Shown one piece after another: positions 7,179 through 47,813 of a stretch of DNA of 54,577 nt. The translations under genes and the position numbers were made by a program. The first letter of the stretch is position 1; every line of letters begins with the position of its first letter. Location: UHGV virus genome UHGV-0031053, one strand, 5' to 3'. The notes beneath the pieces are model-generated. The model saw only the letters and a list, made by a program, of their open reading frames with translations. It did not search any database and was not told the DNA's origin. This stretch comes from a virus.

Positions 7179-7772
7179 ATGAGTAATTTATCAACTAATG
7201 CTTATTTAGCATTGCAACAATCAGAGTTTATATTTGGAACTAGAAATAATGCTAAGGATATTGAAATCCGTAATGCAGTTATATTATTTAGAAACTTAGC
7301 TGGCGCTGAGCGTGTAGGTAAGAGAAAGGATGGTTCTTCATTTAAGTCACGTGGAGCTGATTTTAAGGTTGCTATTTCCGAGGAAGTATATAAAACACTT
7401 GAAAAGATTGGTACTTTCTCTATTTCAGCTTTACCAGTTGAGTTGCCTGAGAGTGAGGAAACAACATTATATTTATTAAGAGTTAAGGTTACTATGGATT
7501 CTGAGTGGCCTCCAGTTATTAAATTATATACTAAAATGAATGGTAAGACATCTGTTAATCAATTGACTAAAGATAGTATTGAAACAGCTGATAGAGTTGA
7601 AATCGATAGAGCAGATATCATCATTCATCCAAGTGAGTATGATGATGGAAAGTTCTCAGTATATTTAAAGCAAATGAATATTTGTACTGTAGAGGCTCAA
7701 GATTTTGGTGGTTATTGGGATGAACTAATTGCTTCAGATGATGTTGAGACTAATCCATTTCCTCAGAACTAA
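7179..7772 (+). CDS. hypothetical protein (possible ssDNA-binding, DUF2815-like)
   Basis: Position between polymerase and helicase. Weak resemblance of the N-terminal region (VILFRNLAGAER...) to phage SSB-like proteins. Not verified. Confidence 0.3.
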   Translation: MSNLSTNAYLALQQSEFIFGTRNNAKDIEIRNAVILFRNLAGAERVGKRKDGSSFKSRGADFKVAISEEVYKTLEKIGTFSISALPVELPESEETTLYLLRVKVTMDSEWPPVIKLYTKMNGKTSVNQLTKDSIETADRVEIDRADIIIHPSEYDDGKFSVYLKQMNICTVEAQDFGGYWDELIASDDVETNPFPQN

Positions 7773-7782
7773 GAGGTTCTAA

Positions 7783-9033
7783 ATGGAGGGAGTACAGCTA
7801 TTCGATTGGCAAGTAGAAGCTCTCCATAAAATGAAAAATGGTTGTATATTGAATGGCGGTGTCGGTTCTGGTAAGTCTAGGACTGGCATCGGCTATTATT
7901 ATATTCTCAATGGTGGAGAGATTAATACTAAAAAGTATGTGAAGATGACAAATCCTACTGACTTATATATTATCACTACCGCCAGAAAGAGGGATACTGG
8001 CGAATGGGATAAGGATTTGAAACCATATGGTTTGTCAGTTAACTCTGAGATTAATATGTACAAGAATAAGGTCATTGTAGATTCTTGGAATAATATAGGA
8101 AAATATTATGGTGTTAAAAATGCTTTCTTTATATTTGATGAGCAAAGAGTTGTTGGCTATGGAAAGTGGTCAGCTACGTTCATAGAGATATCAAAGCATA
8201 ATAAGTGGATTTTATTGTCAGCTACACCGGGCGATACGTGGATGGACTTTATACCAGTGTTTATAGCAAATGGATTTTACAAAAATAAGACTGACTTTTG
8301 TAATAAGCACGTTATATATAGTCGATATACTAACTATCCGAAAGTTGATAAGTTCTTTGGCGAAGGGCGTCTTATAAGACTTAAAAAGGAAATACTTATT
8401 GATATGGATTTTCAAAGGAAGACTATTCCGCATAAGATTAAAATCTACACAGAATATGATAAAAAATTATATTCAATTGTAGATAGGCAAAGGTGGAATC
8501 CGTATAAGGAAGAACCTATCAAGAATGCAGGCGAATGGTGCTTATGCTTGAGAAGAGTAGTTAACAGCTCAGAAGAAAGAAAAAAAGCAGTTCTAGATAT
8601 AGTAAAAGAACATCCAAAAGCTATTATATTCTATACATTTGATTATGAACTTGAGATGCTCAGGGATGTATTTAAGGATTATCCACATGCTGAGTGGAAT
8701 GGACATAAACATCAAGATTTACCTGATGGCGATGAATGGGTTTACTTTGTTGAGTATATTGCTGGTAATGAAGGATGGAATTGCATTACAACTGATACTA
8801 TTATTTTCTATTCACAGAACTATTCATATAAGGTTATGACTCAGGCTGCGGGTAGAATAGATAGGCTTAATACACCATATACGGACTTATATTATTATCA
8901 TCTTATGTCAATGTCGAATATAGATAGAACTATAGCTCGTTCATTAGCATGCAAGAAAAAATTCAATGAAAATAAATATTACGAAAGCAAATTCGGAAAT
9001 GAAAAGGAGAAAGAAATTTATGGAATTCGATGA
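7783..9033 (+). CDS. SF2 (DEAD/DEAH or SNF2-like) DNA helicase
   Basis: Motif I GGVGSGKSRTG, motif II FIFDEQ, motif III LLSATPG, motif VI QAAGRIDR. Confidence 0.75.
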   Translation: MEGVQLFDWQVEALHKMKNGCILNGGVGSGKSRTGIGYYYILNGGEINTKKYVKMTNPTDLYIITTARKRDTGEWDKDLKPYGLSVNSEINMYKNKVIVDSWNNIGKYYGVKNAFFIFDEQRVVGYGKWSATFIEISKHNKWILLSATPGDTWMDFIPVFIANGFYKNKTDFCNKHVIYSRYTNYPKVDKFFGEGRLIRLKKEILIDMDFQRKTIPHKIKIYTEYDKKLYSIVDRQRWNPYKEEPIKNAGEWCLCLRRVVNSSEERKKAVLDIVKEHPKAIIFYTFDYELEMLRDVFKDYPHAEWNGHKHQDLPDGDEWVYFVEYIAGNEGWNCITTDTIIFYSQNYSYKVMTQAAGRIDRLNTPYTDLYYYHLMSMSNIDRTIARSLACKKKFNENKYYESKFGNEKEKEIYGIR

Positions 9034-9391
9034 TGAAACAAAAACAATAACATGTACAAATAAAAAAGATGCATTTTTTCTAATAACGGCAATTGAGTAT
9101 TATTTGAATCCTCATTCAAAAATTATGTCACTTGCAACAGTTCGCGAACTACTTGAACAGCTCCCTGTTAAAGAGAATTTCGGTTTTAAAGAAAAGGGGC
9201 ATTTAATATTTAAATATAACATAGAAAAATCATTAATTATTCTTGATTTTAGTTATGAGTTATACGATGAAAAAATGAGTTATGTTTTAGAGGTGGGACC
9301 ATTTTGTGTTGAAGATGGTGGTTTAAGTGTAATGGATAACGACACTAGAATGTACGATGCCTTAAAACAAATAAAAAATATTAAAAACTAG
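9020..9391 (+). CDS. hypothetical protein
   Basis: ORF track frame 8966-9391. ATG 9020 follows AAGGAG (9004-9009) and avoids a long overlap with the helicase gene. Confidence 0.4.
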   Translation: MEFDDETKTITCTNKKDAFFLITAIEYYLNPHSKIMSLATVRELLEQLPVKENFGFKEKGHLIFKYNIEKSLIILDFSYELYDEKMSYVLEVGPFCVEDGGLSVMDNDTRMYDALKQIKNIKN

Positions 9392-9403
9392 GTGGTGTGA
9401 TTT

Positions 9404-9922
9404 ATGACAAAATTTGGAGTTAAGTTTTCTAATTTGATTATTAAAATTGGTGGTTTTATAGCTAGTAAGAAATGGCTATATTACTTGCTAAATTATACGT
9501 GGGGATTATTACCTACATTACTTGGATGGCTATTATATTTATGCTGTATGCCATTTGCGTTCTATAAAGACAAAAGATATGGTATGAGATATATTAGCTT
9601 TGATGCTCAGAGTGGATGGGGCTTTTCATTAGGCACTTCAATATTCATTAGTAATCGTATTTCTGAGTGTGTTATACCTCATGAAATAGGGCATACAATA
9701 CAGAATGCAATATTTGGACCTTTTCAAATTATATTGGTTGATATACCTAGTGCCATAAGATTCTGGTATAGAAAGATACTCGCTAAATGTGGAAAGAAGT
9801 TAATTAAAAAATACGATGACATTTGGTTTGAATCTTCCGCTACATCTTTAGGAGTAATTATTAGTATCACTTGGAAGAGAAACTGGTCAACAGACAGAAG
9901 AAAAGAAAAAGAAAAGAAATAA
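9404..9922 (+). CDS. integral membrane protein with HExxH motif (putative zincin-like metallopeptidase)
   Basis: Several hydrophobic helices. CVIPHEIGHTIQN contains HEIGH. Confidence 0.45.
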   Translation: MTKFGVKFSNLIIKIGGFIASKKWLYYLLNYTWGLLPTLLGWLLYLCCMPFAFYKDKRYGMRYISFDAQSGWGFSLGTSIFISNRISECVIPHEIGHTIQNAIFGPFQIILVDIPSAIRFWYRKILAKCGKKLIKKYDDIWFESSATSLGVIISITWKRNWSTDRRKEKEKK

Positions 9923-10128
9923 TTGGGGGTTCAGAATTTATTCATTTGGATAAGTCTGTTCCCGTTACATATAAGTGTTTGGTCTGTGGTGGAAAACGAA
10001 CACTACGTTTCAACTATAAGGATGCTACTACAGGACAATTATGGAGATACGTTAAGTATAAGGCTAGGATTCCTTATGGTGGAAAGATAAAATGTAATAA
10101 ATGCAATGGTCTAATGCAAATGGAGTGA
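9871..10128 (+). CDS. zinc-ribbon protein (CxxC...CxxC)
   Basis: ORF track (TTG start; true start uncertain, possibly downstream). CLVCGG...CNKCNG. Overlaps the end of the previous gene. Confidence 0.3.
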   Translation: MEEKLVNRQKKRKRKEIIGGSEFIHLDKSVPVTYKCLVCGGKRTLRFNYKDATTGQLWRYVKYKARIPYGGKIKCNKCNGLMQME

Positions 10129-10137
10129 GGTGATATA

Positions 10138-10545
10138 GTGGAGCAAGAAAAAATAGAGGCAATAAAAGAAATTTTTAAACGTGATTGGCTTGGTAAGTAT
10201 AGGGATAATAATAGGGAACCTGAGTATGTCGATAAGTATCATTGTCTTACAGTGATGGGGTATTCAACTCTAAAAAAATTTGGTAATTTGCTTATATCCG
10301 AACGGCATTATCATAGATGCTTGAATTTAGCTCATTCGGAATTGTTCGGTGATGAATATGATTTAATGCCTTGCTATTTTAGTAATCAAAATATATATAA
10401 TATGGAATACAATGCTTGTGAAAGAGCCGTATTGAAGGGCATTGAGGATTTGGTTGGATTTCCAGTGGTAATTAGAAAAGTACTTGGAGAAAATGAGGCA
10501 AATGTTGTAGATTGCATTATATTTGAAAAGGGGACAAAAGTATGA
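10138..10545 (+). CDS. hypothetical protein
   Basis: ORF track. GTG start after GGAGTGAGGTG. Confidence 0.45.
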   Translation: MEQEKIEAIKEIFKRDWLGKYRDNNREPEYVDKYHCLTVMGYSTLKKFGNLLISERHYHRCLNLAHSELFGDEYDLMPCYFSNQNIYNMEYNACERAVLKGIEDLVGFPVVIRKVLGENEANVVDCIIFEKGTKV

Positions 10546-10763
10546 ATAAGAAAAATATGAAATTGCGAGATATGACTAGCGAAGATATGCAAAACTATTG
10601 TAATTTATATCATATCGATTGTTCTGACCCACATGTAAATAAATGTTTTTTTAATGGAAAAGGAATTAATTGTCGATGGTGGGACAATAACTGCTGGGTA
10701 AATCATAAGGAATTATATTCAGATTTGTTTCTAAATCAGGAAATTGAGGTGCCTGTGAAATGA
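10542..10763 (+). CDS. Cys-rich domain protein, short member of the modular Cys-rich paralog family
   Basis: C-terminus NKCFFNGKGINCRWWDNNCWVNHKELYSDLFLNQEIEVPVK parallels the tails of 11219-11614, 11615-12016 and 49114-49872. Confidence 0.45.
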   Translation: MNKKNMKLRDMTSEDMQNYCNLYHIDCSDPHVNKCFFNGKGINCRWWDNNCWVNHKELYSDLFLNQEIEVPVK

Positions 10764-10817
10764 AAGTTTATGTTGATGATGAGAAAATTCAAGAAATGAT
10801 AACAATAATGAAGGAGT

Positions 10818-11216
10818 ATGAACATGATGAGAATAACCAAAAAGCTTAACGAACCATATGTAATTGATAATAATACCATTATGTATTATGTAGATTCAAG
10901 TATGAGTGTAATTAATTCAAGTGGATTAAATATGGTTAATAAGTTAGGTAAATTAGAGGATATAGAAGAACAATTAGAGTGTCCTTTAGAAGCTAGGGAG
11001 CAAGCATTAAAGCAAGGATACATTTATACAGCATGGCATAGTAGAGATGGATTTGAAAAACAAGAAATAACCCATTTAGTTTATGACAAAGATATAAAAA
11101 TGTGGATTTTTAAAGACCTTGAAAAAAATACTGAAGGATTTTATTGTGAGTTGGCTAATATTCCTGTTGATGGATATAAAAAGACTTGGTGGCTTAGAGA
11201 GGATGGGAGTGAATAA
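10818..11216 (+). CDS. hypothetical protein
   Basis: ORF track. RBS AAGGAG. The start may be one of the ATGs at 10818-10827. Confidence 0.45.
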   Translation: MNMMRITKKLNEPYVIDNNTIMYYVDSSMSVINSSGLNMVNKLGKLEDIEEQLECPLEAREQALKQGYIYTAWHSRDGFEKQEITHLVYDKDIKMWIFKDLEKNTEGFYCELANIPVDGYKKTWWLREDGSE

Positions 11217-11218
11217 AA

Positions 11219-11614
11219 ATGAATGATAATGTAAAAAAGGTATTTGATATACTAGGTGTTGAACCTTATGAAGAGTTCAAATTGCAAACCGAAGATGGAG
11301 ATATTACTGATAAATTATATCATATTGATGATGAATTAGATATATTATGTGGTGGAAGATTAACATTTGCAAGTGTTGTTTTATTATTAAAAGGTGATTT
11401 TAAAATCATTAAATTACCAAAGAAAAAGAAACTAAGAGATTTAACAATAGAAGAGTATGAAAAATGGTATGAAAATAATTGTGGAGCTAGTGATTGTTAC
11501 GAATGTCCATTTGCTACTGTAAATTGCTCAGCTCACAGTGAAAATGGTTGGGCAAAACATAAAAACTTATTTTCAGATAAATTCCTAGACCAAGAAGTAG
11601 AGGTAAAAGAATAA
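11219..11614 (+). CDS. modular Cys-rich family protein (FDILGVEP module + KLPKKKKLRDLT/Cys-rich module)
   Basis: VKKVFDILGVEPYEEF...IIKLPKKKKLRDLTIEEYEKW...CGASDCYECPF..C...W.KHKNLFSDKFLDQEVEV. Shares near-identical nucleotide stretches with the next gene. Confidence 0.55.
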   Translation: MNDNVKKVFDILGVEPYEEFKLQTEDGDITDKLYHIDDELDILCGGRLTFASVVLLLKGDFKIIKLPKKKKLRDLTIEEYEKWYENNCGASDCYECPFATVNCSAHSENGWAKHKNLFSDKFLDQEVEVKE

Positions 11615-12016
11615 ATGACAGATAATGTAAGAAAAATATTTGATATGCTAGGTGTTGAACCTAATGAGGTGTTTAAAGTTAAAAAACGATACAGTTATTT
11701 TTACAAAATAGATGAAAAATTAAATGTATTTTTTAAATATATGTCATGTGAAGAATGGGGAGAATCAGTCATTAAAATTGGTGATTTTTTAACCGGTGAA
11801 AATGAAATTGTTAAATTACCAAAGAAAAAGAAATTAAGAGATTTAACAATAGAAGAGTATGAAAAATGGGAAGAGAGATGCTGCCCTAATAATGATTGTG
11901 ATAATTGTCCATTTTTTGCTTTTGCATGTAATAGTTCATCCGACTCTTGTTGGATAAAACATAAAGACTTATTTTCGGATAAATTCCTAGACCAAGAAGT
12001 AGAGGTGCCTGAATAA
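11615..12016 (+). CDS. modular Cys-rich family protein
   Basis: VRKIFDMLGVEPNEVF...KLPKKKKLRDLTIEEYEKW...CCPNNDCDNCPF...CWIKHKDLFSDKFLDQEVEVPE. Confidence 0.55.
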   Translation: MTDNVRKIFDMLGVEPNEVFKVKKRYSYFYKIDEKLNVFFKYMSCEEWGESVIKIGDFLTGENEIVKLPKKKKLRDLTIEEYEKWEERCCPNNDCDNCPFFAFACNSSSDSCWIKHKDLFSDKFLDQEVEVPE

Positions 12017-12391
12017 ATGATTGCTACAATAGTATGTGGATTAGTAATTATAGCGTGCATAGTGATTCTTATATTGCATTTGAACGATGTTACTTATTAT
12101 GTAAACGAGGATGCGATATTGTTATTATCTATTGTGTCTTTGCTTATATTAAGTACTAGTTTGATTCTCGGCTACGTACATAATGGTTCTAAAGAGGAAT
12201 GTGAATCAAAGAAGAATACTATTATATTTTTATTAGAGCAAAAACCAGATAAATACTCTATTGAATTGGCAGAAAAATATAATAGAAAAGAACATATTGG
12301 TAACAATTACTGGTGTAGATTTACACTTAGAGAAGAGAATACAATAGACATTTATTCTTATTTGATAGAGTATGGAAAAGAGTCTAAATAA
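12017..12391 (+). CDS. membrane protein, tandem paralog 1
   Basis: N-terminus MIATIVCGL.II.CIV identical to the next gene. Shared GNNYWCRFTLREE motif. Confidence 0.5.
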   Translation: MIATIVCGLVIIACIVILILHLNDVTYYVNEDAILLLSIVSLLILSTSLILGYVHNGSKEECESKKNTIIFLLEQKPDKYSIELAEKYNRKEHIGNNYWCRFTLREENTIDIYSYLIEYGKESK

Positions 12392-12960
12392 TGATAGCAA
12401 CAATAGTGTGTGGATTAATAATTATATTTTGCATAGTTGGGATTGCTATAATGGCATACCAATGGTTTGAATCCCTTTATGATGATGGTTCTTTCTCTGG
12501 GATTATATGTGCGTTCCTTTGCGTAATTGGTGTTGGCATAATATTCTTGGTACTATCTTTGATGATTGGCTACTATAATGTCGACTCTGATGCTAAACGA
12601 GAATTTGAAAAGAATGAAATTGTTAAGATGCTTGAAGAAGGTCCAAACGAGTATAACGTTGGCTTAGCTGAAGAGCATAACAAGAAGGAAAAGCAGGGCA
12701 ATAATTACTGGTGTAGATTTACACTTAGAGAAGAGTACTTGATTGACATTAAATCATATTTATACAATGGTAACAAAGGAGATAAGATGGACGGAATTGC
12801 AAATAGTGATTGCAAGTTTTATGATTTTGGTAAACAATACATAGAACTAAAAGAGGGGTCTATAGTAGAAGTTATAGGTAAGTCCGAAGATTATTATGTT
12901 GTACGATGGAATGGTACGACTGGTCTTATCGATAAGAAATATATAGATTTACAGGAGTGA
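12391..12960 (+). CDS. membrane protein, tandem paralog 2, with C-terminal SH3b-like domain
   Basis: Same N-terminus and GNNYWCRFTLREE motif. C-terminus YYVVRWNGTTGLIDKKYIDL is SH3-like. Confidence 0.5.
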   Translation: MIATIVCGLIIIFCIVGIAIMAYQWFESLYDDGSFSGIICAFLCVIGVGIIFLVLSLMIGYYNVDSDAKREFEKNEIVKMLEEGPNEYNVGLAEEHNKKEKQGNNYWCRFTLREEYLIDIKSYLYNGNKGDKMDGIANSDCKFYDFGKQYIELKEGSIVEVIGKSEDYYVVRWNGTTGLIDKKYIDLQE

Positions 12961-12973
12961 TTTATTAAAAATT

Positions 12974-13010
12974 AGGAAGGCGTTTAATGAACAATCCTTC
13001 TTAATTTTTG
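12974..13010 (+). terminator. rho-independent terminator-like hairpin after the early region
   Basis: AGGAAGG...CCTTCTT stem (7 bp, one G-T) followed by AATTTTT. Confidence 0.35.
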
Positions 13011-13024
13011 CCTTATAATAGTAG

Positions 13025-13054
13025 TTAATTCCTACACAATACTCGTACATTATA
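13025..13054. promoter_or_regulatory. pair of CTACA(C/T)(A/T)ATA boxes, near-identical to 47925-47953
   Basis: TTAATTCCTACACAATACTCGTACATTATA versus TTAATCCTACACAATAAACCTACATTATA. Confidence 0.6.
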
Positions 13055-13108
13055 GGGAAAATAGATGGTAATCGTACACAATTTGGGTGGAAAATTGCTA
13101 AAAAATCC

Positions 13109-13471
13109 GTGTCAAAAACCTTGTCAAATCCATGTCAATTTGTGTCAATTTTTTGGTTTTGACATGAAAATGCGAAAAATGGCGATTAAAATTTGGTGAA
13201 AAATACGAAAAAAGTGCCATTTCTGTGTCAAATTGCCACTTTTGAAAAAAAGTGTCACGGTTTTGACATGGAATTTTGACATGAAAAATTGCGAAAAAAG
13301 TGCGTTTTTTGGTCATTTTTGACTGTTTTTGGGCGTTTTTTGCCGTTTTTTGGGGTATTTTTGGGTAAAAATTGAGTTCTGTGTCAAATTGCCACTTTTT
13401 TTCTTAAAAATAAAATTTTTTTTAAAAAATAAATAATATAAAAATATACAAATTTTTTGAATTTTTTGACA
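13109..13471. repeat. array of at least 10 TGTCAA/TTGACA hexamers plus CGAAAAA-type repeats and a 22-bp direct repeat
   Basis: Four tandem TGTCAA at 13110, 13122, 13133, 13143 (10-12 bp phasing). Inverted TTGACATG at 13159, 13264, 13276, 13466. TCTGTGTCAAATTGCCACTTTT at 13222-13243 and 13378-13399. (A/T)GCGAAAAA(T/A)G at ~13170, ~13204, ~13290. Confidence 0.7.
13316..13375. repeat. phased T-tracts (intrinsically bent DNA)
   Basis: GTTTTTGGGC GTTTTTTGCC GTTTTTTGGGG TATTTTTGGGT: T5-6 runs every 10-11 bp. Confidence 0.55.
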
Positions 13472-13560
13472 TGGCGTAAAAATGAGCCTTTTTCGGCTAA
13501 AATTTAACAATATAAAAATATGCTCTAATAATATAAAATAAGATTATTTTTTTCTTTACA

Positions 13561-13630
13561 AATATAAGACGATATAAGTGAATATAAACTGATATAACCA
13601 AATATGGGCAAATATACGCGGAATATAAAA
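13561..13630. repeat. seven tandem 10-bp repeats, consensus RATATAANNN, exactly helically phased
   Basis: aatataagac gatataagtg aatataaact gatataacca aatatgggca aatatacgcg gaatataaaa. Confidence 0.7.
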
Positions 13631-13754
13631 AATAATATGACAATTATATTTAAAATATAAGGTCGCACGAAAAACAAAGTCTTTTATGGAGAGAATACGT
13701 TTTTATTTTTAATATAACAAGTTCTTTGAATTTTTGTAAAGGGGAAGAGCAACT

Positions 13755-14069
13755 ATGGCAAAAAATAAAATATATCGTGTTGAAGCTGAATATCAAAAGC
13801 ATTTGATAGAAGAAATTTATCATCGCATTGATGAAGTAACAATTCTAAAAAATGATTCTGGTTATCTACAAGGTATTCCAGATTTGTGTATCTTAGGACC
13901 ACGAGGAAAGGATGCTTTGTTAGAGGTCAAGCTTCACGAGAATTCACCACACAGACCAAACCAAGACTACTATATTCAGCGTGAATGTAAACGTGGAGGT
14001 TTTGCTAGATTTATATATCAAGAGAATGAAGAGGAAGTTCTTGGCGATTTGGTGAATTGGTTTAAGTAA
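13755..14069 (+). CDS. VRR-NUC domain nuclease
   Basis: GIPDLCILGPRGKDALLEVK matches the VRR-NUC PD...(E)xK signature. Confidence 0.7.
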   Translation: MAKNKIYRVEAEYQKHLIEEIYHRIDEVTILKNDSGYLQGIPDLCILGPRGKDALLEVKLHENSPHRPNQDYYIQRECKRGGFARFIYQENEEEVLGDLVNWFK

Positions 14070-14089
14070 TTGGAAAGGGGATTATATTT

Positions 14090-14728
14090 ATGAAGTGGAA
14101 TGACCACCATCAATTAGAAGGTAAACATGCCTTCTTAAGTGCTAGCAAATTTACTTGGCTTAATTGGGATCCAGAAACTTTGGAAATGAGATTCTATAGT
14201 CAATATCAACAAGAGATTGGAACTCTTATTCACGAGCTTGCTCACAGGCGTATTGTGTGTAGACGTAAAATTAATAAAAATGATGTCCATTTGATTGAAG
14301 ATGTCATGGACCAGAATTATATTCCAAGAGGAGCTTATGACCCAGCCAAAATATTGGAGAATTTAGTACCATTTATTAATGACGCTATTGGCTTTAGAAT
14401 GGATAGCGAAATCATTCTATATTACAACCAATATTGCTTTGGCACAACTGATGCAATCGTATATGATGAGAAGAATAAGATTCTTAGAATACACGATTAC
14501 AAGAATGGAGTTACTCCAGCACATATGGAGCAGTTATTAATCTATGCGGCATTATATTGTTTGGAATACAACAAAAATCCAAAAGATTTTGCTACTGAGC
14601 TTAGATTATATCAGTTGAGTGAAATTATTGTTCACCAACCAAAGCCAGAAGAGATATTAACAATTATAAATGTTATTAAGCAACAAACATTATGTATTTA
14701 TGGATTTGCAGGAGGCGACATTAGATAA
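14090..14728 (+). CDS. putative PD-(D/E)XK-family nuclease (Cas4/RecB-like fold?)
   Basis: GTTDAIVYDEKNKILRIHDYK fits hhhD...(D/E)xK. Also contains IHELAH, so a metalloenzyme alternative is not excluded. Confidence 0.35.
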   Translation: MKWNDHHQLEGKHAFLSASKFTWLNWDPETLEMRFYSQYQQEIGTLIHELAHRRIVCRRKINKNDVHLIEDVMDQNYIPRGAYDPAKILENLVPFINDAIGFRMDSEIILYYNQYCFGTTDAIVYDEKNKILRIHDYKNGVTPAHMEQLLIYAALYCLEYNKNPKDFATELRLYQLSEIIVHQPKPEEILTIINVIKQQTLCIYGFAGGDIR

Positions 14729-17700
14729 TGGAAGAAAATACTTTAAAGGCATCGGCCGAAGAAATGGAAATGTTCCACGATTTATTTAGTGGAGCCGAAG
14801 AACTAATTAATGAAATAAATGACGAAGATTATATTCAACATTATGGTATGCCAAGACGTTCTGGACGTTATCCTTGGGGCTCTGGTGATAATCCATATCA
14901 ACATTCAGGTGATTTCTTAGCTCGTAAGAATGAGTTAAAGAAATCTGGAATGAGCGAAAAAGAAATAGCTGATTATTTTAATATGTCAACTACACAGTAT
15001 AGAGCAGCTGTATCAATTGCAAATGCTGAGCGTAGATCATATCAAGTAGAAACAGCTAAATCATTAAAAGCTCATGGATATAATAATGTTGAAATTGCTA
15101 AAAAGATGGGATTACCCGGAGAATCATCAGTTAGGTCATTACTTAATTCAGATTCCGAATCAAGAATGAAAAAAGCAGAATCAACAGCGTCAAATTTAAA
15201 GAAATTAGTTGATGAACGAGGTATGATTGATGTCGGTATTGGTGCGGAGCGTCAATTAGGTATATCAAAAGAAAAAATGAACCAAGCACTTGAGATGCTA
15301 AAAATGGAAGGATATGAGGTTTATGGAAATAGAGTTCCACAAGCCACTAATCCCGGTAAATATACAACATTAAAAGTGCTTTGCCCTCCCGGAACTAAAC
15401 ATAGTGAAATTTATGACTATGATAAAATTAATTATATTAATGATTTAACATCAAGAGATGGCGGAGATACATTTGAACCAACATTCGTATATCCTAAATC
15501 ATTAGATTCAAATCGTTTAGCAATTAGATATGCTGAAGATGGTGGCGTAAATAAAGATGGCGTTATGGAAATACGTCGTGGAGTAAAGGATCTATCATTA
15601 GGTGAATCTAATTATTCACAAGTACGTATTTTAGTTGATGGTAAACGTTATTTAAAAGGTATGGCTGTGTATTCAGATGATCTTCCTGATGGTGTTGACA
15701 TTGTATTTAACACTAACAAGGGCAAGGATAAATCAAAAATGGAAGTTTTAAAGGAAATAAAAGAAGATTCCGAAAATCCATTTGGTTCTTCAGTAAGATC
15801 AACCTATTATATTGATGAAAATGGAGAAAGACAGCTATCATTAATAAACAAGCGTTCCGACGAAGGAGAATGGGGGAATTGGTCAGACCATTTGCCATCG
15901 CAGTTCTTAGCCAAGCAATCTTTAAGCCTTATTAAGAAGCAATTAAATTTAACAGCATCTGATAAGGAGGATGAATATGATGAAATATGTCGTCTTACTA
16001 ATCCAACAATTAAAAGAAATATGCTAGAAACGTTTGCTGATGATTGCGACTCTGCTGCAGTTCATTTACAAGCTGCTGCATTGCCAGGTCAAAAATATCA
16101 GGTTATATTACCATTGACATCAGTCAAAGATACCGAAGTATATGCACCAAATTTCAAAGATGGTACGCAAGTAGCACTTGTGCGATATCCACATGGTGGA
16201 ACATTTGAAATACCAATTCTTAAAGTAAATAATAAACTTGAAGAAGGCAAGAAAATGATGGGTACAAATCCAGCTGATGCTATTGGTATAAATAAAAATG
16301 TAGCAGATAGATTATCTGGTGCTGATTTTGATGGTGATACTGTAATGGTTATACCACTAAGTGATAAGGTAAAAATAACTTCTACTAAGCAACTAAAAGA
16401 ACTAGAAGGATTTGATACTAAATTAGCATATCAATATGATGACAAGGTAAAAGATGCTAATGGTAAAGAACATTACTATCGTGCTGGCAAAGAAATAAAA
16501 ATTATGAACAATACCCAAACAGAAATGGGTAAAATTTCAAATCTTATCACAGATATGACATTAAGAGGTGCTTCTACAGAAGAGTTAGCACGTGCTGTTA
16601 AACATTCAATGGTTGTTATTGATGCTGAAAAGCATAAATTAGATTATAAACAATCTGAAATAGACAATAATATTGACCAATTGAAACGTGATTATCAGGG
16701 GCGTGAAGACAGTACACGTTATGGTGGAGCTTCAACTTTAATTTCTAAAGCTAAGTCACCAATCATAATTAATGAAAGAAAAGATGGTGCTTTCTTTACA
16801 AAGGAAGGAAATCATCCAGCATCTGTGGTTGATGAAGATAAGAAAATATATGTAGATGATATTACTGGTGAAATACTAAAGCGTAATCAACTTAAGCCAG
16901 TTGTATATGTAAATCCGGAAACTGGTGAAAAAATGTATCATGATACAAATCGTACATTTAGACAAGCTGTTTATAAGGATTCTAATGGTAAAACTAGAAA
17001 ATCTACTGTTATTACAAAAGATGGAAAAGATTATTTCAAAGATGAGGATGGACAATATACTCAAGTTACAAATGAAATAATTAAGGTTAGAAAAGCAACT
17101 CAAGAATCTACAAAAATGGCTGAAACATCTAATGCAAGAACACTATCATCTGGTACCCCACAAGAGGAAGCATATGCAGAATATGCAAATAAAATGAAGG
17201 CTTTAGCCAATAGAGCAAGAAAAGAAGCATTAGTTACTAAGGATATTCCATATTCTCCAGCAGCTAAGGAAGCATATTCAGAAGAGGTTAAGACCCTTAA
17301 TGCTAAATTAAATATAGCCGAACTTAATGCACCTAAGGAAAGACAAGCTCAAACTATAGCAAATACAGCTATTCGAGCTCAAACGCAAGCAAATCCTAAG
17401 ATGACTAGTGAGGAGAAAAAGAAATTATCTCAAAGAGAAATAGCTAAAGCTAGAATTAAAGTAGGTGCGGGTAAGAAAAATATAGAAATAACACAAAAAG
17501 AGTGGGCAGCCATTCAAGCAGGTGCCATTTCTAAATCTCGCTTACAAAATATCATAAATAATTGTGATACAAAGACGCTGAGACAGTTAGCTACACCTAG
17601 AGATAAGGTATCTGTAAGTAGTTCTAAGATTGGTCGTATGAAGAGTATGGCTAATTGTGGATATACCAATGCAGAAATAGCAGAAGCCCTAGGATTATCA

Positions 17701-17739
17701 GCTTCTACTGTAGTTAAATATATTAATGGAAAGGAGTAA
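14728..17739 (+). CDS. single-chain RNA polymerase homologous to multisubunit RNAP beta/beta-prime (YonO-like), fused to HTH DNA-binding modules
   Basis: Beta-like DPBB: VDGKRYLKGMAVYS (nt 15634-15675) and LPDGVDIVFNTN (15688-15711), cf. GDKMAGRHGNKGVIS...GTPVDIVLNP. Beta-prime-like DPBB: VALVRYPHGG...FEIPIL...SGADFDGDTVMVIPLS (nt ~16180-16365), cf. VLLNRAPTLHRLG...NADFDGDQMAVHVPLS. HTH-like segments near the N-terminus (MSEKEIADYFNMSTTQYRAAVSIA; YNNVEIAKKMGLPGESSVRSLL) and at the C-terminus (GYTNAEIAEALGLSASTVVKYI, sigma region 4/LuxR-like). Confidence 0.75.
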   Translation: MEENTLKASAEEMEMFHDLFSGAEELINEINDEDYIQHYGMPRRSGRYPWGSGDNPYQHSGDFLARKNELKKSGMSEKEIADYFNMSTTQYRAAVSIANAERRSYQVETAKSLKAHGYNNVEIAKKMGLPGESSVRSLLNSDSESRMKKAESTASNLKKLVDERGMIDVGIGAERQLGISKEKMNQALEMLKMEGYEVYGNRVPQATNPGKYTTLKVLCPPGTKHSEIYDYDKINYINDLTSRDGGDTFEPTFVYPKSLDSNRLAIRYAEDGGVNKDGVMEIRRGVKDLSLGESNYSQVRILVDGKRYLKGMAVYSDDLPDGVDIVFNTNKGKDKSKMEVLKEIKEDSENPFGSSVRSTYYIDENGERQLSLINKRSDEGEWGNWSDHLPSQFLAKQSLSLIKKQLNLTASDKEDEYDEICRLTNPTIKRNMLETFADDCDSAAVHLQAAALPGQKYQVILPLTSVKDTEVYAPNFKDGTQVALVRYPHGGTFEIPILKVNNKLEEGKKMMGTNPADAIGINKNVADRLSGADFDGDTVMVIPLSDKVKITSTKQLKELEGFDTKLAYQYDDKVKDANGKEHYYRAGKEIKIMNNTQTEMGKISNLITDMTLRGASTEELARAVKHSMVVIDAEKHKLDYKQSEIDNNIDQLKRDYQGREDSTRYGGASTLISKAKSPIIINERKDGAFFTKEGNHPASVVDEDKKIYVDDITGEILKRNQLKPVVYVNPETGEKMYHDTNRTFRQAVYKDSNGKTRKSTVITKDGKDYFKDEDGQYTQVTNEIIKVRKATQESTKMAETSNARTLSSGTPQEEAYAEYANKMKALANRARKEALVTKDIPYSPAAKEAYSEEVKTLNAKLNIAELNAPKERQAQTIANTAIRAQTQANPKMTSEEKKKLSQREIAKARIKVGAGKKNIEITQKEWAAIQAGAISKSRLQNIINNCDTKTLRQLATPRDKVSVSSSKIGRMKSMANCGYTNAEIAEALGLSASTVVKYINGKE

Positions 17740-17745
17740 CAGTGT

Positions 17746-18000
17746 ATGAAAGAACTTAGAATAACAACGCAAGACAATCCATACAATCCATTCACACAAT
17801 GGGATGATTGGTACATGTTTGATTTGCAAAAAGGCTATCATACATGCGAACGTTTAGCTTCAGTAGCATACACTTCTGATGCACTTTCCGATGATGAGAA
17901 CCTTGAACAAGTTGAAAGAGCAGCTAACATGCTTCTTAAAACTGGTGCAATCAACAAAGAAGGCAAAATTGTTGAGTACAAAAAGGTTTATAGAGACTGA
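17746..18000 (+). CDS. hypothetical protein
   Basis: ORF track. RBS AAGGAG. Confidence 0.45.
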   Translation: MKELRITTQDNPYNPFTQWDDWYMFDLQKGYHTCERLASVAYTSDALSDDENLEQVERAANMLLKTGAINKEGKIVEYKKVYRD

Positions 18001-18041
18001 AATAAGCTCAAAAAGCAATAAAAAAGCTTAAAATGGCTTAA

Positions 18042-18120
18042 CCCCACCCCGGGGGAGGGTATCGCAAAAGACACCCCCTCCCCGTATCGGGTCGGTCCTA
18101 AAAAATTCCCCACGGGAAAA
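18042..18120. other. GC-rich structured island in AT-rich DNA (hairpin GGGGAGGG/CCCTCCCC), candidate cos/packaging site or structured RNA
   Basis: CCCCACCCCGGGGGAGGGTATCGCAAAAGACACCCCCTCCCCG, then a second imperfect palindrome AAAATTCCCCACGGGAAAATTTT. Lies directly upstream of terS, HNH and terL. Confidence 0.4.
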
Positions 18121-18315
18121 TTTTACCAAAAGTTTTTGATATTTTAGTGGACATTTAGTCGAGTATATGAGGCTCTTTTGCATAACCTCTTTCTTTGCAA
18201 TTTTTCCTCCCATGCTCTTCTCCTTTTCAGCATCTGGGAGTCCTTGTATACTCTGCTAAATGCCTACCTAAAGTGTTTTAAACTTATATTAAACTATATG
18301 GAAAAGGAGTATAAC

Positions 18316-18654
18316 ATGCCTACAAATAGAGCTAAAAACATAGGTTCTGGCGAATTGCCTCCAAAAAGACCAGCTCTTACACCAGAGGCACGTGAGAATC
18401 AAATGATATCCTTGGCTTTTGATGCTGCTGAACGTCAATTAAGGGATGGAACAGCATCTGCACAAGTCATAACTCATTTTCTAAAGCTCGCTACAGTTAG
18501 AGAGCAAAAGGAACTTGAAAAAATTGAATTAGAAAAGCAACTTCTTGAAGCTAAGAAGGGTGCAATTGAATCCGAACAGCATGCTTCAGAATTATTTGAT
18601 GAAGCTATTAAGGCTTTCAGTACATATTCTGGAGGAGGCAATAAAAGTGAATGA
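18316..18654 (+). CDS. terS: putative terminase small subunit
   Basis: ORF track frame 18178-18654. ATG 18316 sits 6 nt after AAGGAG. Small helical protein (EKIELEKQLLEAKK coiled coil) immediately upstream of HNH and TerL. Confidence 0.45.
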   Translation: MPTNRAKNIGSGELPPKRPALTPEARENQMISLAFDAAERQLRDGTASAQVITHFLKLATVREQKELEKIELEKQLLEAKKGAIESEQHASELFDEAIKAFSTYSGGGNKSE

Positions 18655-19081
18655 TATTAAACTACGAACATATAGTGAACTCAAAGAATTAAAGACATAT
18701 AAAGAGAGATTTAATTATTTGAAGATACATAATGCTGGTGTTGGTATCAGCACATTCGGATTTGATAGATATTTGAATCAGGATTTTTATAAATCAAAAG
18801 AATGGAAGCGAGTTCGTGATGAAGTAATAGTCCGTGACAATTGTTGCGACCTAGGCATTGAAGGTCGTGAGATATGCGGCAAGGTATATGTCCATCATAT
18901 GAACCCTTTAACGGTAGAGGACGTAAAATTTTCTACCGATTTTTTATTGAATCCTGAATACCTAATTTGTGTTTCACACGAAACGCACAACGCCATACAT
19001 TATGGCGATGATGCCATACTTGATAAGTATGAGTATAAAGAAAGAGAAAAAAATGACACTTGTCCTTGGAGGAAGAAATGA
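18647..19081 (+). CDS. HNH endonuclease
   Basis: ORF track frame 18545-19081. GTG 18647 sits 8 nt after GGAGGAGG. CCDLG...CGKVYVHHMNP...SHETHNAIHY is an HNH/Zn motif. The terS-HNH-terL arrangement is typical of cos-type packaging. Confidence 0.7.
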   Translation: MNDIKLRTYSELKELKTYKERFNYLKIHNAGVGISTFGFDRYLNQDFYKSKEWKRVRDEVIVRDNCCDLGIEGREICGKVYVHHMNPLTVEDVKFSTDFLLNPEYLICVSHETHNAIHYGDDAILDKYEYKEREKNDTCPWRKK

Positions 19082-19428
19082 AGAATTACGATGATTCAAT
19101 ATTGAATGATGTCAAGAAATCGTTAGGTATGACTCCAGAATATGATGCATTTGATAATGACTTGATTTTGCACATAAACACAGTGTTTTCAACCTATCGA
19201 CAAATGGGAATAGGTCCACAAGATGGTTTCTCAATACAAGATGAGAATGCTACATGGCAAGATTATCTAGGGGATAGATTAGCATTACTTGAACAAGTAA
19301 AAACATGCACTTGTTTAAAAGTAAGATTGCTATTTGATCCACCATCAAGTTCAGTTCACTTAGATTCTATGAACAAAATAATAGCTGAGCTTGAGTATAG
19401 AATGTATATAGAAGAAGGAGGTTACTAG
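19078..19428 (+). CDS. hypothetical protein (possible gp6-like head-tail connector/DNA-packaging protein)
   Basis: ORF track frame 19060-19428. ATG 19078 overlaps the HNH stop (ATGA). LNDVKKSLGMT...DNDLILHINTVFSTYRQ resembles the gp6-like connector N-terminal pattern. Confidence 0.3.
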   Translation: MKNYDDSILNDVKKSLGMTPEYDAFDNDLILHINTVFSTYRQMGIGPQDGFSIQDENATWQDYLGDRLALLEQVKTCTCLKVRLLFDPPSSSVHLDSMNKIIAELEYRMYIEEGGY

Positions 19429-19430
19429 TT

Positions 19431-19970
19431 ATGGATTTCTTTGGATTGAGTTATTTAATGCACCATGGCATAAAAGGTCAAAAATGGGGTGAAAGAAATT
19501 ATCAAAATTTGGATGGTTCTTTAACTGATGCTGGTAAAGCTCGCTATAGTAAATCATCAAATAAAGATAATGACAAGAACCAGAAGAATAGCAATACTAA
19601 TAAGCAAGATAAGAAAAACAATAACAAAAAGAAAGAATTCGATTATAAAGATGCTTCTGAAGTATTAAATAATACATCAAAAGTGTTTAAAGATAGTTCT
19701 AATTTATTAAAAACTGGTAACGGCAAATACATTAAAAAAGATTACTCAAATATTTCTGATGAAGAATTAAAGATGCGTATTCGTAGACTTGAAATGGAAA
19801 AGAAATATGGAGATTTAACTGGTGATACAAAATATATTCGTTCCGGTAGCGAAAAAATAAAAGATGTCATCGGTACTGTAGGTGCTATTGTTGGTATAGC
19901 TGGCACAACAGTTATGATAGCTCAAGGTATACATAATATGAAAAAATCAAAGTCTGGAGGTAAATCATAA
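19431..19970 (+). CDS. small protein with HHGIKGQKWG N-terminal motif, K/N-rich linker and C-terminal TM helix (motif family member 1)
   Basis: LMHHGIKGQKWGERNY. Hydrophobic segment VIGTVGAIVGIAGTTVMIAQGI. Confidence 0.5.
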   Translation: MDFFGLSYLMHHGIKGQKWGERNYQNLDGSLTDAGKARYSKSSNKDNDKNQKNSNTNKQDKKNNNKKKEFDYKDASEVLNNTSKVFKDSSNLLKTGNGKYIKKDYSNISDEELKMRIRRLEMEKKYGDLTGDTKYIRSGSEKIKDVIGTVGAIVGIAGTTVMIAQGIHNMKKSKSGGKS

Positions 19971-20410
19971 TGGACTATATTGATGTGCATGAGTTATACC
20001 ATTATGGAGTGCCGGGAATGAAATGGGGGCATCATAAAACTCCAAAAGTTATGGTATCTAATGGAAATCGAAGAAAAAATGGTCAACAGACAGAAGAAAA
20101 GAAGAAAGAAAAGAAACCATTTCTTTATAATAGAGCTGTTAAGACTAGTAAACAATTAGAAAAATTTTCTGAAAGAATACCGGGAATTAGAAAAATAGCT
20201 TATACAAAAGAACTTTCTAAAGACCAACATGCTACACGTGGTTATGCATTTATGGCGACTGTATTAGCAGCTGGAATCGCTACTAAGGTGACTATTGGTG
20301 CAATTCGTAAGCATAAAGGTATTACACCTATTACACCTCTAGAGACGAAAAAAAATGGAACAGTTGTTGATGCAGTTTTAAAAGATATTCCTAAAAAATC
20401 CAAAGCATAA
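19970..20410 (+). CDS. small protein with YHYGVPGMKWG N-terminal motif and TM helix (motif family member 2)
   Basis: LYHYGVPGMKWGHHKT. Hydrophobic segment YAFMATVLAAGIATKVTIGAI. ATG overlaps the upstream stop. Confidence 0.5.
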   Translation: MDYIDVHELYHYGVPGMKWGHHKTPKVMVSNGNRRKNGQQTEEKKKEKKPFLYNRAVKTSKQLEKFSERIPGIRKIAYTKELSKDQHATRGYAFMATVLAAGIATKVTIGAIRKHKGITPITPLETKKNGTVVDAVLKDIPKKSKA

Positions 20411-20461
20411 TAAATTGTTTCATTATTAAGAAATGTTTACTGAAAATGGTAATGGATTAAT

Positions 20462-22192
20462 ATGCTATCTAATACAGCAGTTCCCATTTATTATGGGCAA
20501 TTCAGAGATTCAGTCTTAAAAGGTGAATTACCTGTCTGTGCTACCATTTCAATGGAAATGAATCGCATAGATAAATTAATTGAAAATCCCGGTGTATTTT
20601 ATGATGATGAGGCTGTTAATGGCTTTATTTCATACTGCGAAAATGAATTAACACTGACTGATGGTTCGGATTTAAAAATGCTTGATTCATTCAAGCTATG
20701 GGCTGAACAAGTATTTGGTTGGTACTATTTCATAGAGCGAAGTGTCTTTGTACCTGATGAAGAAGGCATAGGTGGACACTATGAAAAACGCCTGATAAAG
20801 AAAAGATTAACGCAAAAGCAATTTTTAATAATACCGAGAGGTGCTGCAAAATCAATGTATGCATCTTTTATTCAAAGTTACTTTTTAAATATCGATACTA
20901 GTACTACTTATCAGGTATCAACTGCTCCTACAATGAAGCAGGCTGAAGAGGTAATGTCACCAATAAGAACCTCTATCACAAGGGCGAAAGGCCCTTTTTT
21001 TAAATTTCTAACAACTGCGAATACTCAAGGTAAAGTTAAGAAGAGAATGCTAGAATCCACCAAAAAGGGAATAGAAAACTTCTTAACAGGCTCATTACTT
21101 GAAATTAGACCTATGAGAATAGATAAACTGCAAGGTATGAGATGCAAAATAGCTACTATAGATGAGTGGCTTTCTGGAGATGTTCGAGAAGATGTAATTG
21201 GTGCAATCGAGCAAGGTGCTTCTAAATTAGACGATTGGCTAATTGTAGCAACTTCATCAGAAGGTACTGTTAGAAATGGTAGCGGTGACACAATTAAAAT
21301 GGAATTAATGTCAATTCTTAAAGGTGAATACATTAATCCACATGTATCTATTTGGTACTACAAATTAGATGCAATTGAAGAAGTTGGTAAACCTGAATTG
21401 TGGATTAAGGCTAATCCAAATTTAGGTAAAACTGTTTCATATGAAACATACCAATTGGATGTAGAGAGAGCCGAGAAGGCTCCGGCAACAAGAAATGATA
21501 TTTTGGCAAAAAGATTTAACCTTCCTATGGAGGGTTTTACATATTTCTTTGCTTATGAAGAAACAGAAGTACATCCTCATCGAGATTATTGGGGACTACC
21601 ATGCTCGTTGGGTGCAGACTTATCACAGGGTAATGACTTCTGTGCATTTGCATTTTTATTTCCATTAAATAATAGTCAATTCGGTATTAAAACATTGAGT
21701 TATATAAGTTCATTAACATTACACAAATTACCGCCAGCTCTTAGGGCTAAATATGATGAATTTATTAATGAAGGTACATTGATAGTCTTGGATGGAACAA
21801 TTCTTGATATGAATGATGTTTATGATGATTTAGATAATCATATAACAAGTCACGATTATGATGTACGTTGCTTAGGTTTCGACCCTTATAATGCAAAAGA
21901 GTTTGTCAATCGTTGGCAAACGGAAAACGGCCCATTTGGAATAGAAAAAGTATCTCAGGGGGTAAAAACGGAATCGGTACCACTTGGCGAATTGAAAAAC
22001 CTTGCAGAAGCAAGATTACTTTTATTTGATGAAAAAATAATGACTTTTACAATGGGTAATTGTATTGCTATTGAGGATACAAACGGCAATAGAAAATTAA
22101 ATAAGCAAAAAAGAGAAGCTAAAATTGATAATGTGGCAGCCTTACTGGATGCCTTTGTTGCATATAAAGCACATAAGGAGGCATTTGACTAA
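20462..22192 (+). CDS. terL: terminase large subunit
   Basis: Walker A-like IIPRGAAKSMYAS and Walker B KIATIDEW. C-terminal RNaseH-like nuclease region (CSLGADLSQGNDFCAFAF). 576 aa. Confidence 0.85.
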   Translation: MLSNTAVPIYYGQFRDSVLKGELPVCATISMEMNRIDKLIENPGVFYDDEAVNGFISYCENELTLTDGSDLKMLDSFKLWAEQVFGWYYFIERSVFVPDEEGIGGHYEKRLIKKRLTQKQFLIIPRGAAKSMYASFIQSYFLNIDTSTTYQVSTAPTMKQAEEVMSPIRTSITRAKGPFFKFLTTANTQGKVKKRMLESTKKGIENFLTGSLLEIRPMRIDKLQGMRCKIATIDEWLSGDVREDVIGAIEQGASKLDDWLIVATSSEGTVRNGSGDTIKMELMSILKGEYINPHVSIWYYKLDAIEEVGKPELWIKANPNLGKTVSYETYQLDVERAEKAPATRNDILAKRFNLPMEGFTYFFAYEETEVHPHRDYWGLPCSLGADLSQGNDFCAFAFLFPLNNSQFGIKTLSYISSLTLHKLPPALRAKYDEFINEGTLIVLDGTILDMNDVYDDLDNHITSHDYDVRCLGFDPYNAKEFVNRWQTENGPFGIEKVSQGVKTESVPLGELKNLAEARLLLFDEKIMTFTMGNCIAIEDTNGNRKLNKQKREAKIDNVAALLDAFVAYKAHKEAFD

Positions 22193-46348: not shown

Positions 46349-46550
46349 ATACATTATTTATACACATAATTTAAAAAAGTGGTATCAAATATAACTATTT
46401 TTATTGTTTTAATAATTCTACTTATATTATTAAATAGTATCGCTTTTGACACAAAATGGCATTAAATCACACTTTTTTAATTGTCAAGTTAGTAAAAAAA
46501 TGCAGGAAATTGTGTTGTTTAATGGTTTATTCCTACACTATTCCTACACT
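46349..46550. promoter_or_regulatory. AT-rich region downstream of int with CTACAC-type boxes, candidate attP
   Basis: TACATTAT (46349-57) and TACACATAAT (46361-70). Tandem TCCTACACT at 46531-39 and 46542-50 abutting the int stop. Confidence 0.35.
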
Positions 46551-47752: not shown

Positions 47753-47813
47753 AATACACCACACTCCTACACAATTTCATCGATATTTTGATACTATCAC
47801 ACAAACAATTAGA

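Follow-up and report, generated by a model that had tools for sequence, protein, structure and literature searches.

The polymerase gene and its catalytic core

The virus genome UHGV-0031053 (54,577 nucleotides; hereafter the window, meaning the whole stretch of DNA that was analyzed) carries at positions 14728 to 17739, on the plus strand, an open reading frame (ORF) for a protein of 1003 amino acids (aa). An earlier note, made from the letters alone, had read this product as a single-chain, YonO-like RNA polymerase (RNAP) with helix-turn-helix (HTH) units at both ends. The ORF is present as described, together with the peptides quoted from it: translation locates RYPH at 16183-16194, DFDGD at 16324-16338, and RILVDGKRYLKGMAV...PDGVDIVFN at 15625-15717. 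The protein matches the profile of PHROG 4291, "RNA-dependent RNA polymerase" (E = 0, 1221 bits), from aa 30 to 1002 on profile positions 6-908 of 909, and an identical protein is found on ENA metagenome contig ERZ27286987 (50.5 kb). The gene and the features assigned to its product are as follows.

14728..17739, plus strand: polymerase gene, ORF from ATG to stop, 1003 aa, PHROG 4291 family
14839..14904, plus strand: conserved N-terminal peptide HYGMPRRSGRYPWGSGDNPYQH, aa 38-59, predicted to be disordered
14911..15165, plus strand: two N-terminal HTH units, aa ~62-100 and ~104-146 (PHROG 664, PHROG 7061, and helices in the AlphaFold2 [AF2] model)
15490..15867, plus strand: predicted first barrel, a beta/Rpb2-like double-psi beta-barrel (DPBB-B), aa ~255-380
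16075..16362, plus strand: predicted second barrel, beta-prime/Rpb1-like DPBB-A, aa ~450-545, with R486-Y-P488-H489 and the metal-binding loop D533-F-D-G-D537
16513..16695, plus strand: conserved helices after the catalytic loop, aa 596-656 (helices 596-612 and 617-636), inside the Pfam RdRP match
16705..17607, plus strand: predicted beta-rich insertion (aa ~660-800) and C-terminal helical region (aa ~803-960), predicted local distance difference test (pLDDT) 85-95
17617..17739, plus strand: C-terminal HTH, aa 964-1003 (tri-helical at ~964-1000), sigma-region-4/LuxR/resolvase-like

Our analysis supports the view that this protein is a single-chain polymerase with both barrels of the multisubunit-RNAP catalytic core and with HTH modules fused at both ends. 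We predicted its structure with AF2 from an alignment of 64 homologous sequences (39-70% identity), and a second check of conservation was made on 39 aligned homologs. The model has a mean pLDDT of 80.5 and a predicted template modeling score (pTM) of 0.64, with disorder limited to residues 1-61. When it was searched against the PDB with Foldseek, the best 18 matches (E 1.6e-7 to 5.6e-4) were QDE-1 or RDR2, and segments of the beta-prime DPBB came next; no beta/Rpb2 chain ranked among the best fold matches. The solved structures nearest to the model are QDE-1 and RDR2, plus the single-chain RNAPs of P74-26/P23-45 and crAss phages, and a fold search of BFVD returned other phage proteins labeled RNA-dependent RNA polymerase (RdRP). 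Because of the AF2 model and these Foldseek and BFVD matches, a two-barrel polymerase fold is well supported as a prediction.

Conservation agrees with the predicted fold. R486, P488, H489, and S530-GADFDGD537 are invariant in the 64 homologs, as are D277, G278, R283, D288, R300, K310, G311, D324, N328, N330, and K331 in the first barrel. Ruprich-Robert and Thuriaux (2010) listed eight universal residues for the two-barrel superfamily (PMC2919709). Five of these are unambiguous here and invariant in both homolog sets (R486, P488, D533, D535, and D537). The remaining three are an Asp and two basic residues of the beta-like barrel (Qde1 D709, R738, and K743; Rpb2 D837, K979, and K987; PMC2919709). 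R300 and K310 stand on adjacent strands of the model (296-303 and 307-316), but their equivalents are not located by aligning the sequence to rpoB; invariant D277 or D288, with R300 and K310, are our candidates for these positions. The catalytic-loop residues are all invariant across phyla, and the idea of an inactive pseudo-enzyme was rejected on that ground.

Beyond the loop, M600, G601, S604, N605, L606, D609, M610, A615, E619, A623, S627, V629, I631, D632, K635, H636, and L638 are invariant within aa 596-656, which is likely the bridge-helix region. No specific family match was obtained for aa ~660-960, a part that might be clamp-like.

At the sequence level, Pfam RdRP (PF05183) matches aa 524-661 with 22.9 bits (E 4.2e-5) against a gathering cut-off of 23.8, which leaves the protein outside formal membership, although the fold shows a real relationship; the same family is found at E <= 1e-3 in 8 of the 39 family members. 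Phmmer and profile searches of PDB sequences with the polymerase returned HTH matches only and no polymerase. The segment ADFDGD...PL is identical, residue for residue, to rpoC 458-473. With filters off, the family hidden Markov model (HMM) found only this segment of Escherichia coli rpoC, not significantly, and nothing in rpoB, and Smith-Waterman alignment with shuffles gave z 1.15 for rpoC and placed the rpoB optimum at the wrong place. The earlier alignment of the first-barrel peptide to a beta (rpoB) motif therefore has no statistical support. The note had made its polymerase call depend on the significance of its beta and beta-prime alignment in profile searches; that alignment is not significant at the sequence level, and the call is kept by the fold and the near-threshold Pfam RdRP match. 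A bacterial RNAP differs in scale and organization, with beta and beta-prime subunits of ~2750 aa plus sigma, as opposed to one 1003-aa chain without sigma.

Fused helix-turn-helix units and relatives of the enzyme

The three HTH units proposed earlier, two N-terminal and one C-terminal, are borne out by PHROG matches, Pfam cut-offs, and internal similarity. The N-terminal helices of the AF2 model span residues 63-72, 77-83, 88-115, 120-127, and 132-139; PHROG 664 ("DNA binding protein") matches aa 68-161 (E 1.6e-7) and PHROG 7061 ("HTH DNA binding protein") matches aa 105-139. At the other end, aa 975-1002 score above the Pfam gathering cut-offs of HTH_3, Sigma70_r4_2, HTH_24, and HTH_23. The second N-terminal unit resembles the C-terminal HTH with z = 8.5 (0 of 1000 shuffles), and the first does so weakly (z = 3.0). 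HTH Pfams match 30-37 of the 39 family members. A Terminase_5 match is limited to the HTH, at 19.9 bits and under the cut-off, and identity as a terminase small subunit was rejected.

Sigma70_r4_2 matches at aa 977-998 (28.6 bits), with a weak match at aa 74-92. Pfam finds no sigma region 2, the part that serves -10 recognition and core binding, in the protein, which places it outside the sigma-70 family, and the C-terminal HTH fits HTH_3, HTH_23, HTH_24, GerE, and HTH_7 equally well. Because sigma region 2 is missing, "sigma-like" should be read as generic HTH only; judged by its domain matches, the unit is a generic tri-helical HTH and not a sigma factor.

Ahead of the first HTH, at least 90% of sequences share H38, Y39, G40, S45, G46, R47, Y48, G51, S52, and G53, and pLDDT is below 50 across aa 21-61. 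The near-invariant peptide of the polymerase, HYGMPRRSGRYPWGSG (HYGxPRxSGRYPWGSG), loosely resembles the DUF7211 start HxGxxGxxWG of two ORFs near terL. These begin HHGIKGQKWG (19431-19970) and HYGVPGMKWG (19970-20410) and lie between the connector and terL; related phages have up to five DUF7211 ORFs near terL (locus L008). A tblastn search with the ORF at 19970-20410 gave no match among deposited phages. We rejected the N-terminal peptide as a DUF7211 domain, since the best Pfam match was E 0.21 over 9 residues in one homolog, with nothing for the window protein. The peptide may be an interaction or targeting signal that the polymerase shares with the DUF7211 ORFs.

The relationships of the enzyme are best explained by grouping it, on the strength of the modeled fold, in one clade with the QDE-1/RDR enzymes and with P23-45 gp64/gp96 and crAss gp66, which are single-chain RNAPs of phages. 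Neurospora QDE-1 and plant RDR2 (PF05183) share with it a single chain, two barrels, and a DbDGD loop after R-x-P; they differ in having 10-14% identity and no HTH modules, and in their setting, which is RNA silencing rather than a dsDNA phage. The RNAPs P23-45 gp64/P74-26 gp62 (non-virion), P23-45 gp96, and crAss-like phi14:2 gp66 (both virion) are DNA-dependent, and gp96 and gp66 each form part of a giant virion protein. P23-45 gp96 and gp64 are promoter-specific, with promoter motifs of their own and without a sigma factor (10.1101/2022.12.01.518664). Unlike the protein studied here, these phage RNAPs have no fused HTH domains; sequence similarity to them is undetectable, and they serve pre-early, early, or middle genes rather than late ones.

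One could take the family label at face value, as a true RNA-dependent RNA polymerase that turns transcripts of the phage or the host into dsRNA or antisense RNA for regulation or counter-defense. PF05183 is the best sequence-family match, with an HHpred link of 95.7% reported by Koert et al. (10.1101/842583), and QDE-1 and RDR2 are the nearest solved structures. The Pfam score, however, lies below its cut-off, and the "RNA-dependent" label was transferred from distant homology and not from an assay. Three HTH modules of a sequence-specific, dsDNA-binding type suggest a DNA target, and the DNA-dependent crAss gp66 and P23-45 gp64/gp96 are structurally as close. YonO was formerly grouped with RdRPs on like grounds and then shown to be DNA-dependent (PMC5467207), and RNA-mediated controls of this kind were stated to be unknown in bacteria (Ruprich-Robert and Thuriaux 2010; PMC2919709). 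We consider a true RdRP highly improbable.

YonO, from the Bacillus subtilis prophage SPbeta, is likewise a single chain with two barrels (~100 kDa) and comes from a temperate phage of Firmicutes, and yonO also lies just upstream of the late operon. It is DNA-dependent and transcribes the SPbeta late genes, with its promoter recognition left unresolved (PMC5467207). The two proteins are not members of one family: hhalign of the 64-sequence profile against YonO gave a probability of 0.2%, and the family HMM, with filters off, found no meaningful domain. A Smith-Waterman alignment of the second barrel paired RYPH with RSPH and DFDGD with DNDGD, a marginal result (z 2.4; 6 of 200 shuffles). Our alignments gave no YonO match to the HTH regions of this protein, YonO itself not having been scanned for HTH. 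YonO-family membership was rejected on these grounds, and the earlier "YonO-like" call is valid only in a loose superfamily sense. Ruprich-Robert and Thuriaux (2010) had already assigned YonO of SPbeta to one, and a phage 1706 protein to another, of five families that they called "YonO-like" (PMC2919709). We infer that their phage 1706 family is PHROG 4291, because Koert et al. group Lactococcus phages of the P162/CHPC971 type with 1706.

The PHROG 4291 family is large. A tblastn search detected full-length homologs in 251 deposited phage genomes; identity was 36-51% across 96-98% of the length, and query coverage was at least 80% in 249 of the 251 records. The hosts span two phyla and include those of Arthrobacter, Gordonia, Streptomyces, Curtobacterium, Microbacterium, and Rhodococcus phages, Lactococcus phages P162 and CHPC971, and Faecalibacterium phage FP_oengus. 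The nearest deposited phage is MT835495 (51% identity). In metagenomes the family forms at least 8000 clusters at 90% identity and at least 1203 at 50% identity (E <= 1e-30), and the best 150 cluster representatives all matched end to end. An alignment-based scan found it in 309 species-representative bacterial genomes, and a single-protein scan of genome contigs found no close relatives. Prophage carriers include [Ruminococcus] torques ATCC 27756, Hungatella hathewayi, Enterocloster lavalensis, Cuneatibacter caecimuris, and Lachnospira hominis, with cultured human-gut Clostridia among them.

Labels on the homologs vary among "helix-turn-helix DNA-binding domain protein", "RNA-dependent RNA polymerase", and "putative RNA polymerase"; PHROGs and RefSeq use "RNA-dependent RNA polymerase". 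Koert et al. (2021) described the HTH at both termini and the DxDGD loop, and treated the gene as a signature of a supercluster comprising actinophage clusters AM, AU, AW, BI, CC, DJ, and EL and the 1706/FP_oengus relatives (bioRxiv 10.1101/842583). The crAss preprint does not mention the family. Both family and architecture are therefore already published and annotated, the earlier note overestimated their novelty, and the window gene adds a member. Phages with PHROG 4291 proteins share the N-terminal HTHs, the RdRP-like core with DxDGD, the C-terminal HTH, and the same neighbors, in the order endonuclease, exonuclease, polymerase, and small ORF, after which comes cos or the end of the genome. 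The window copy differs from them in nothing essential; it belongs to an uncultured temperate phage of ~32% G+C with an integrase and an upstream hub of ~800 bp.

The conserved cassette, the predicted cos element, and the upstream hub

The window is a siphophage genome, temperate because it encodes a tyrosine integrase, the only clear gene on the minus strand; essentially all others lie on the plus strand. It seems to be a complete phage genome whose sequence begins and ends within the early region. The features around the polymerase gene are listed below.

3207-7154: superfamily 3 (SF3) helicase/family-B polymerase (PolB) fusion
7179-7772: ssDNA-binding/annealing protein
7783-9033: helicase
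9034-12960: small ORFs
12961-13754: non-coding hub, 794 bp
13755..14069, plus strand: VRR-NUC-like endonuclease (PHROG 93, E 6.4e-11; Pfam VRR_NUC, E 5e-4, below cut-off)
14090..14728, plus strand: RecB/Cas4-like PD-(D/E)XK exonuclease (PHROG 3953, E 1.4e-53; weak PDDEXK_1 and DUF2800 matches)
17746..18000, plus strand: 84-aa ORF, PHROG 4303 (E 2e-25), 6 bp past the polymerase gene
18046..18138, plus strand: G+C-rich non-coding element, ~85 nt, in the 315-bp gap 18001-18315
Ending at 18654: PHROG 4259 ORF, terS-like by position only
Ending at 19081: HNH
19060-19428: connector
19431-20410: two DUF7211 ORFs
20462-22192: terL
46550-47764, minus strand: tyrosine integrase

The polymerase gene had been described as the first gene after the hub and as directly preceding terS. 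It is in fact third, after the VRR-NUC-like ORF and the RecB/Cas4-like exonuclease, and the 84-aa ORF and the 315-bp gap intervene before the terS-like ORF. Its ATG overlaps the stop of the exonuclease ORF (ATGA at 14728), so the two genes are probably translationally coupled.

We counted neighbors in 80 genome loci. In 76 of 78 loci VRR-NUC stands upstream of the polymerase gene at a distance of no more than 1.5 kb, the exonuclease is directly upstream in 75 of 78, and the 84-aa ORF is directly downstream in 69 of 72 and also in FP_oengus, P162, Scap1, and Circum. The cassette of VRR-NUC, exonuclease, polymerase, and small ORF is nearly invariant in these loci, and the PHROG 4303 protein is a candidate partner or accessory subunit of the enzyme. 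The terS-like gene, HNH, connector, and terL are within a few kb of the cassette in 44-50 of 56 loci. Among 41 ORFs scanned against PHROGs, we recognized neither a sigma factor nor a late activator. No RNA gene turned up when the whole window and the cos gap were scanned with Rfam, or in a tRNA scan. Three paralogous DUF6353 (PHROG 2152) genes lie in the early region (1024-2046, 52954-53796, and 53780-54544), and a second set of ORFs (11219-11614, 11615-12016, and 49114-49872) has exact 12- to 16-mers in common, which points to recent duplications of early genes.

The non-coding element downstream of the cassette follows the pattern GGGGGAGGGT..AAAA..CACCCCCTCC..ATCGGGTCGGTCC|TAAAAAATTCCCC..GGG..TTTT amid a genome of 32% G+C. 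Alignments of related loci show that the element is conserved and its flanks are not, and a nucleotide HMM search (nhmmer) located it in 75 loci, each time as a single copy in the genome, in phages that range from those of Firmicutes to those of Actinobacteria. It is unusual for a non-coding site to be conserved across phyla in this way. In the linear record of Lactococcus phage P162, one half of the element stands at each end, and in the records of Scap1 and Circum the element adjoins the right end. For these reasons it is almost certainly a cos site, with virion DNA ends predicted near 18096/18097, and it could hold a late promoter as well.

Since this predicted cos site lies between the polymerase and the packaging genes, the polymerase gene of the linear genome would be the last large gene of the right, non-structural arm and would adjoin the late genes only in the circular or prophage state. 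In phage lambda, Q, S, and R likewise adjoin Nu1 and A across cos. Two related prophage loci are arranged otherwise: cos-like elements at L017:3914-4003 and L034:2991-3088 stand ~2-3 kb upstream of the polymerase gene instead of past the small ORF (in L017, ~1 kb upstream of the VRR-NUC gene), and the cassette is still joined to the packaging genes, which lends some support to a functional tie between the cassette and the late module. In these phages, the left arm would begin with the cassette and the packaging genes.

Adjacency to packaging and structural genes also speaks for a rival reading, in which the enzyme is made late, packaged in the virion, and injected to transcribe the first phage genes, like crAss gp66, N4 virion RNAP, and P23-45 gp96. 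Its structural neighbors gp66 and gp96 belong to the virion RNAPs, the gene next upstream in Lactococcus phage P162 encodes an endolysin, three homologs bear the JGI label "structural protein", and the disordered N-terminal peptide, which loosely resembles the DUF7211 start, is a possible targeting signal. Pfam does not support the DUF7211 resemblance, however, and the "structural protein" labels are unsourced automatic names. We found no proteomic evidence for a virion location, and the gene is coupled, as its start/stop overlap suggests, to a recombination exonuclease. The phage is temperate, moreover, and temperate phages normally begin with host RNAP. A virion role thus has a slender chance.

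The hub upstream of the cassette contains, at 13110-13470, 10 TGTCAA/TTGACA hexamers in ~360 bp, compared with 0.8 expected per 800 bp. Four of the hexamers are in tandem with 10-12 bp spacing, and an exact 23-nt repeat at 13221 and 13377 is followed by an A+T-rich stretch. From its sequence, the hub looks like an iteron-type origin or an operator array. FP_oengus has a non-coding region of ~870 bp with TTTGGCCAAAAA repeats at the same relative position (L001:7259-8131). A sigma-70 consensus scan of 12800-20600 found 42 sites compared with 36.9 expected, which is not an enrichment.

Such a hub raises a different role, in which the enzyme would be a primase or origin transcriptase instead of a polymerase for gene expression: its HTH units would bind phage DNA, for example at the hub, and its RNA would prime or open the origin for the SF3-helicase/PolB fusion. 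This 1315-aa replication protein (PHROG 4210) combines a P4-type SF3 helicase ("primase_Cterm", aa 138-389) with a family-B polymerase (Pol II-like, aa ~966-1111). No AEP or Toprim domain was recognized in it or in the neighboring ORFs, and no separate primase is annotated in Arthrobacter phage Circum. The near-constant linkage to the VRR-NUC endonuclease and the RecB-like exonuclease, the hexamer array with its A+T-rich stretch, and the FP_oengus repeat region speak for the same role, as does the placement of the gene as the terminal member of the replication module by Koert et al. (10.1101/842583). Yet a 1003-aa enzyme with putative clamp-like domains resembles a processive polymerase, and we know of no two-barrel enzyme that acts as a primase. 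SEA-PHAGES annotators name the fusion "DNA primase/polymerase", so it may hold a primase that went unrecognized; a weak DUF3991 match lies at aa 59-116 (E 0.004). Some PolBs, besides, work without a separate primase, and the actinophages have no large repeat hub upstream of the cassette. Taken together, these points make a priming or origin role unlikely. More doubtful again is a version that extends to the whole supercluster, in which siphophages of Firmicutes and Actinobacteria, having no canonical primase, would rely on the enzyme as their origin-specific primase or origin transcriptase. If true, the priming enzyme would be the first two-barrel primase and a present-day case of the link that has been proposed between the evolution of transcription enzymes and that of replication enzymes.

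A possible late-gene transcriptase

Our preferred reading, to which we assign a probability of about one half, is that the enzyme is a DNA-dependent, sigma-independent transcriptase that is targeted by its HTH units and drives the adjacent late genes. Several observations lead to it. RinA/ArpU-type late activators sit upstream of terS in other Firmicutes phages, and the polymerase gene occupies their slot. The position of yonO is alike, and no sigma factor or activator was recognized among the scanned ORFs. The characterized single-chain two-barrel enzymes of phages, moreover, are all DNA-dependent transcriptases: YonO (PMC5467207), P23-45 gp64/gp96 (10.1101/2022.12.01.518664), and crAss gp66. 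We infer the type of template, the timing of expression, the genes transcribed, and promoter reading by the HTH units.

Under the late-gene reading, the polymerase gene, as the final large gene of the non-structural arm, would share a transcript with the recombination nucleases upstream of it and be translationally coupled to them. The three fused HTH units, rather than a sigma factor, would bring the protein to phage DNA. RNA would then be made on a DNA template, most probably for the adjacent packaging, structural, and lysis genes. YonO in SPbeta would be the parallel, and the enzyme would take the slot of the RinA/ArpU-type activators.

Several points weigh against this reading. The closest solved structures are RNA-dependent enzymes, although QDE-1 is described as copying DNA too (PMC9508822), and the catalytic assignments in the first barrel rest on inference rather than on residue-level superposition on QDE-1 or RNAP. 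The tightest conserved partners of the polymerase gene are DNA-metabolism nucleases, not structural genes, and in phages whose ends are known the gene is found at the extreme right of the linear genome, separated from the late genes by cos. No canonical primase (AEP or Toprim) was recognized in the window, which leaves room for a priming role. A search of both strands of the window for 12-, 14-, and 16-mers present at least three times returned paralogous genes only and no promoter-like motif recurring upstream of the late genes; the conserved element of the cos region is single-copy, so it provides no recurrent motif there. Finally, we found no biochemical or expression evidence for any family member in the searchable literature.

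The value of the window gene lies not in discovery. The family is abundant, culturable, and experimentally tractable, and its polymerase is essential-looking and ready for direct testing. The annotations "RNA-dependent" and "helix-turn-helix protein" are both misleading, and our analysis corrects both. Single-chain relatives of cellular RNAPs serve as models of the ancestral transcription enzyme, and single-chain RNAPs are a route by which some phages escape host transcription. Each member of this family has three fused HTH units, and such units have not been reported in the characterized single-chain relatives. If these units read promoters, the enzyme would be a two-barrel RNAP with target recognition inside the catalytic chain.

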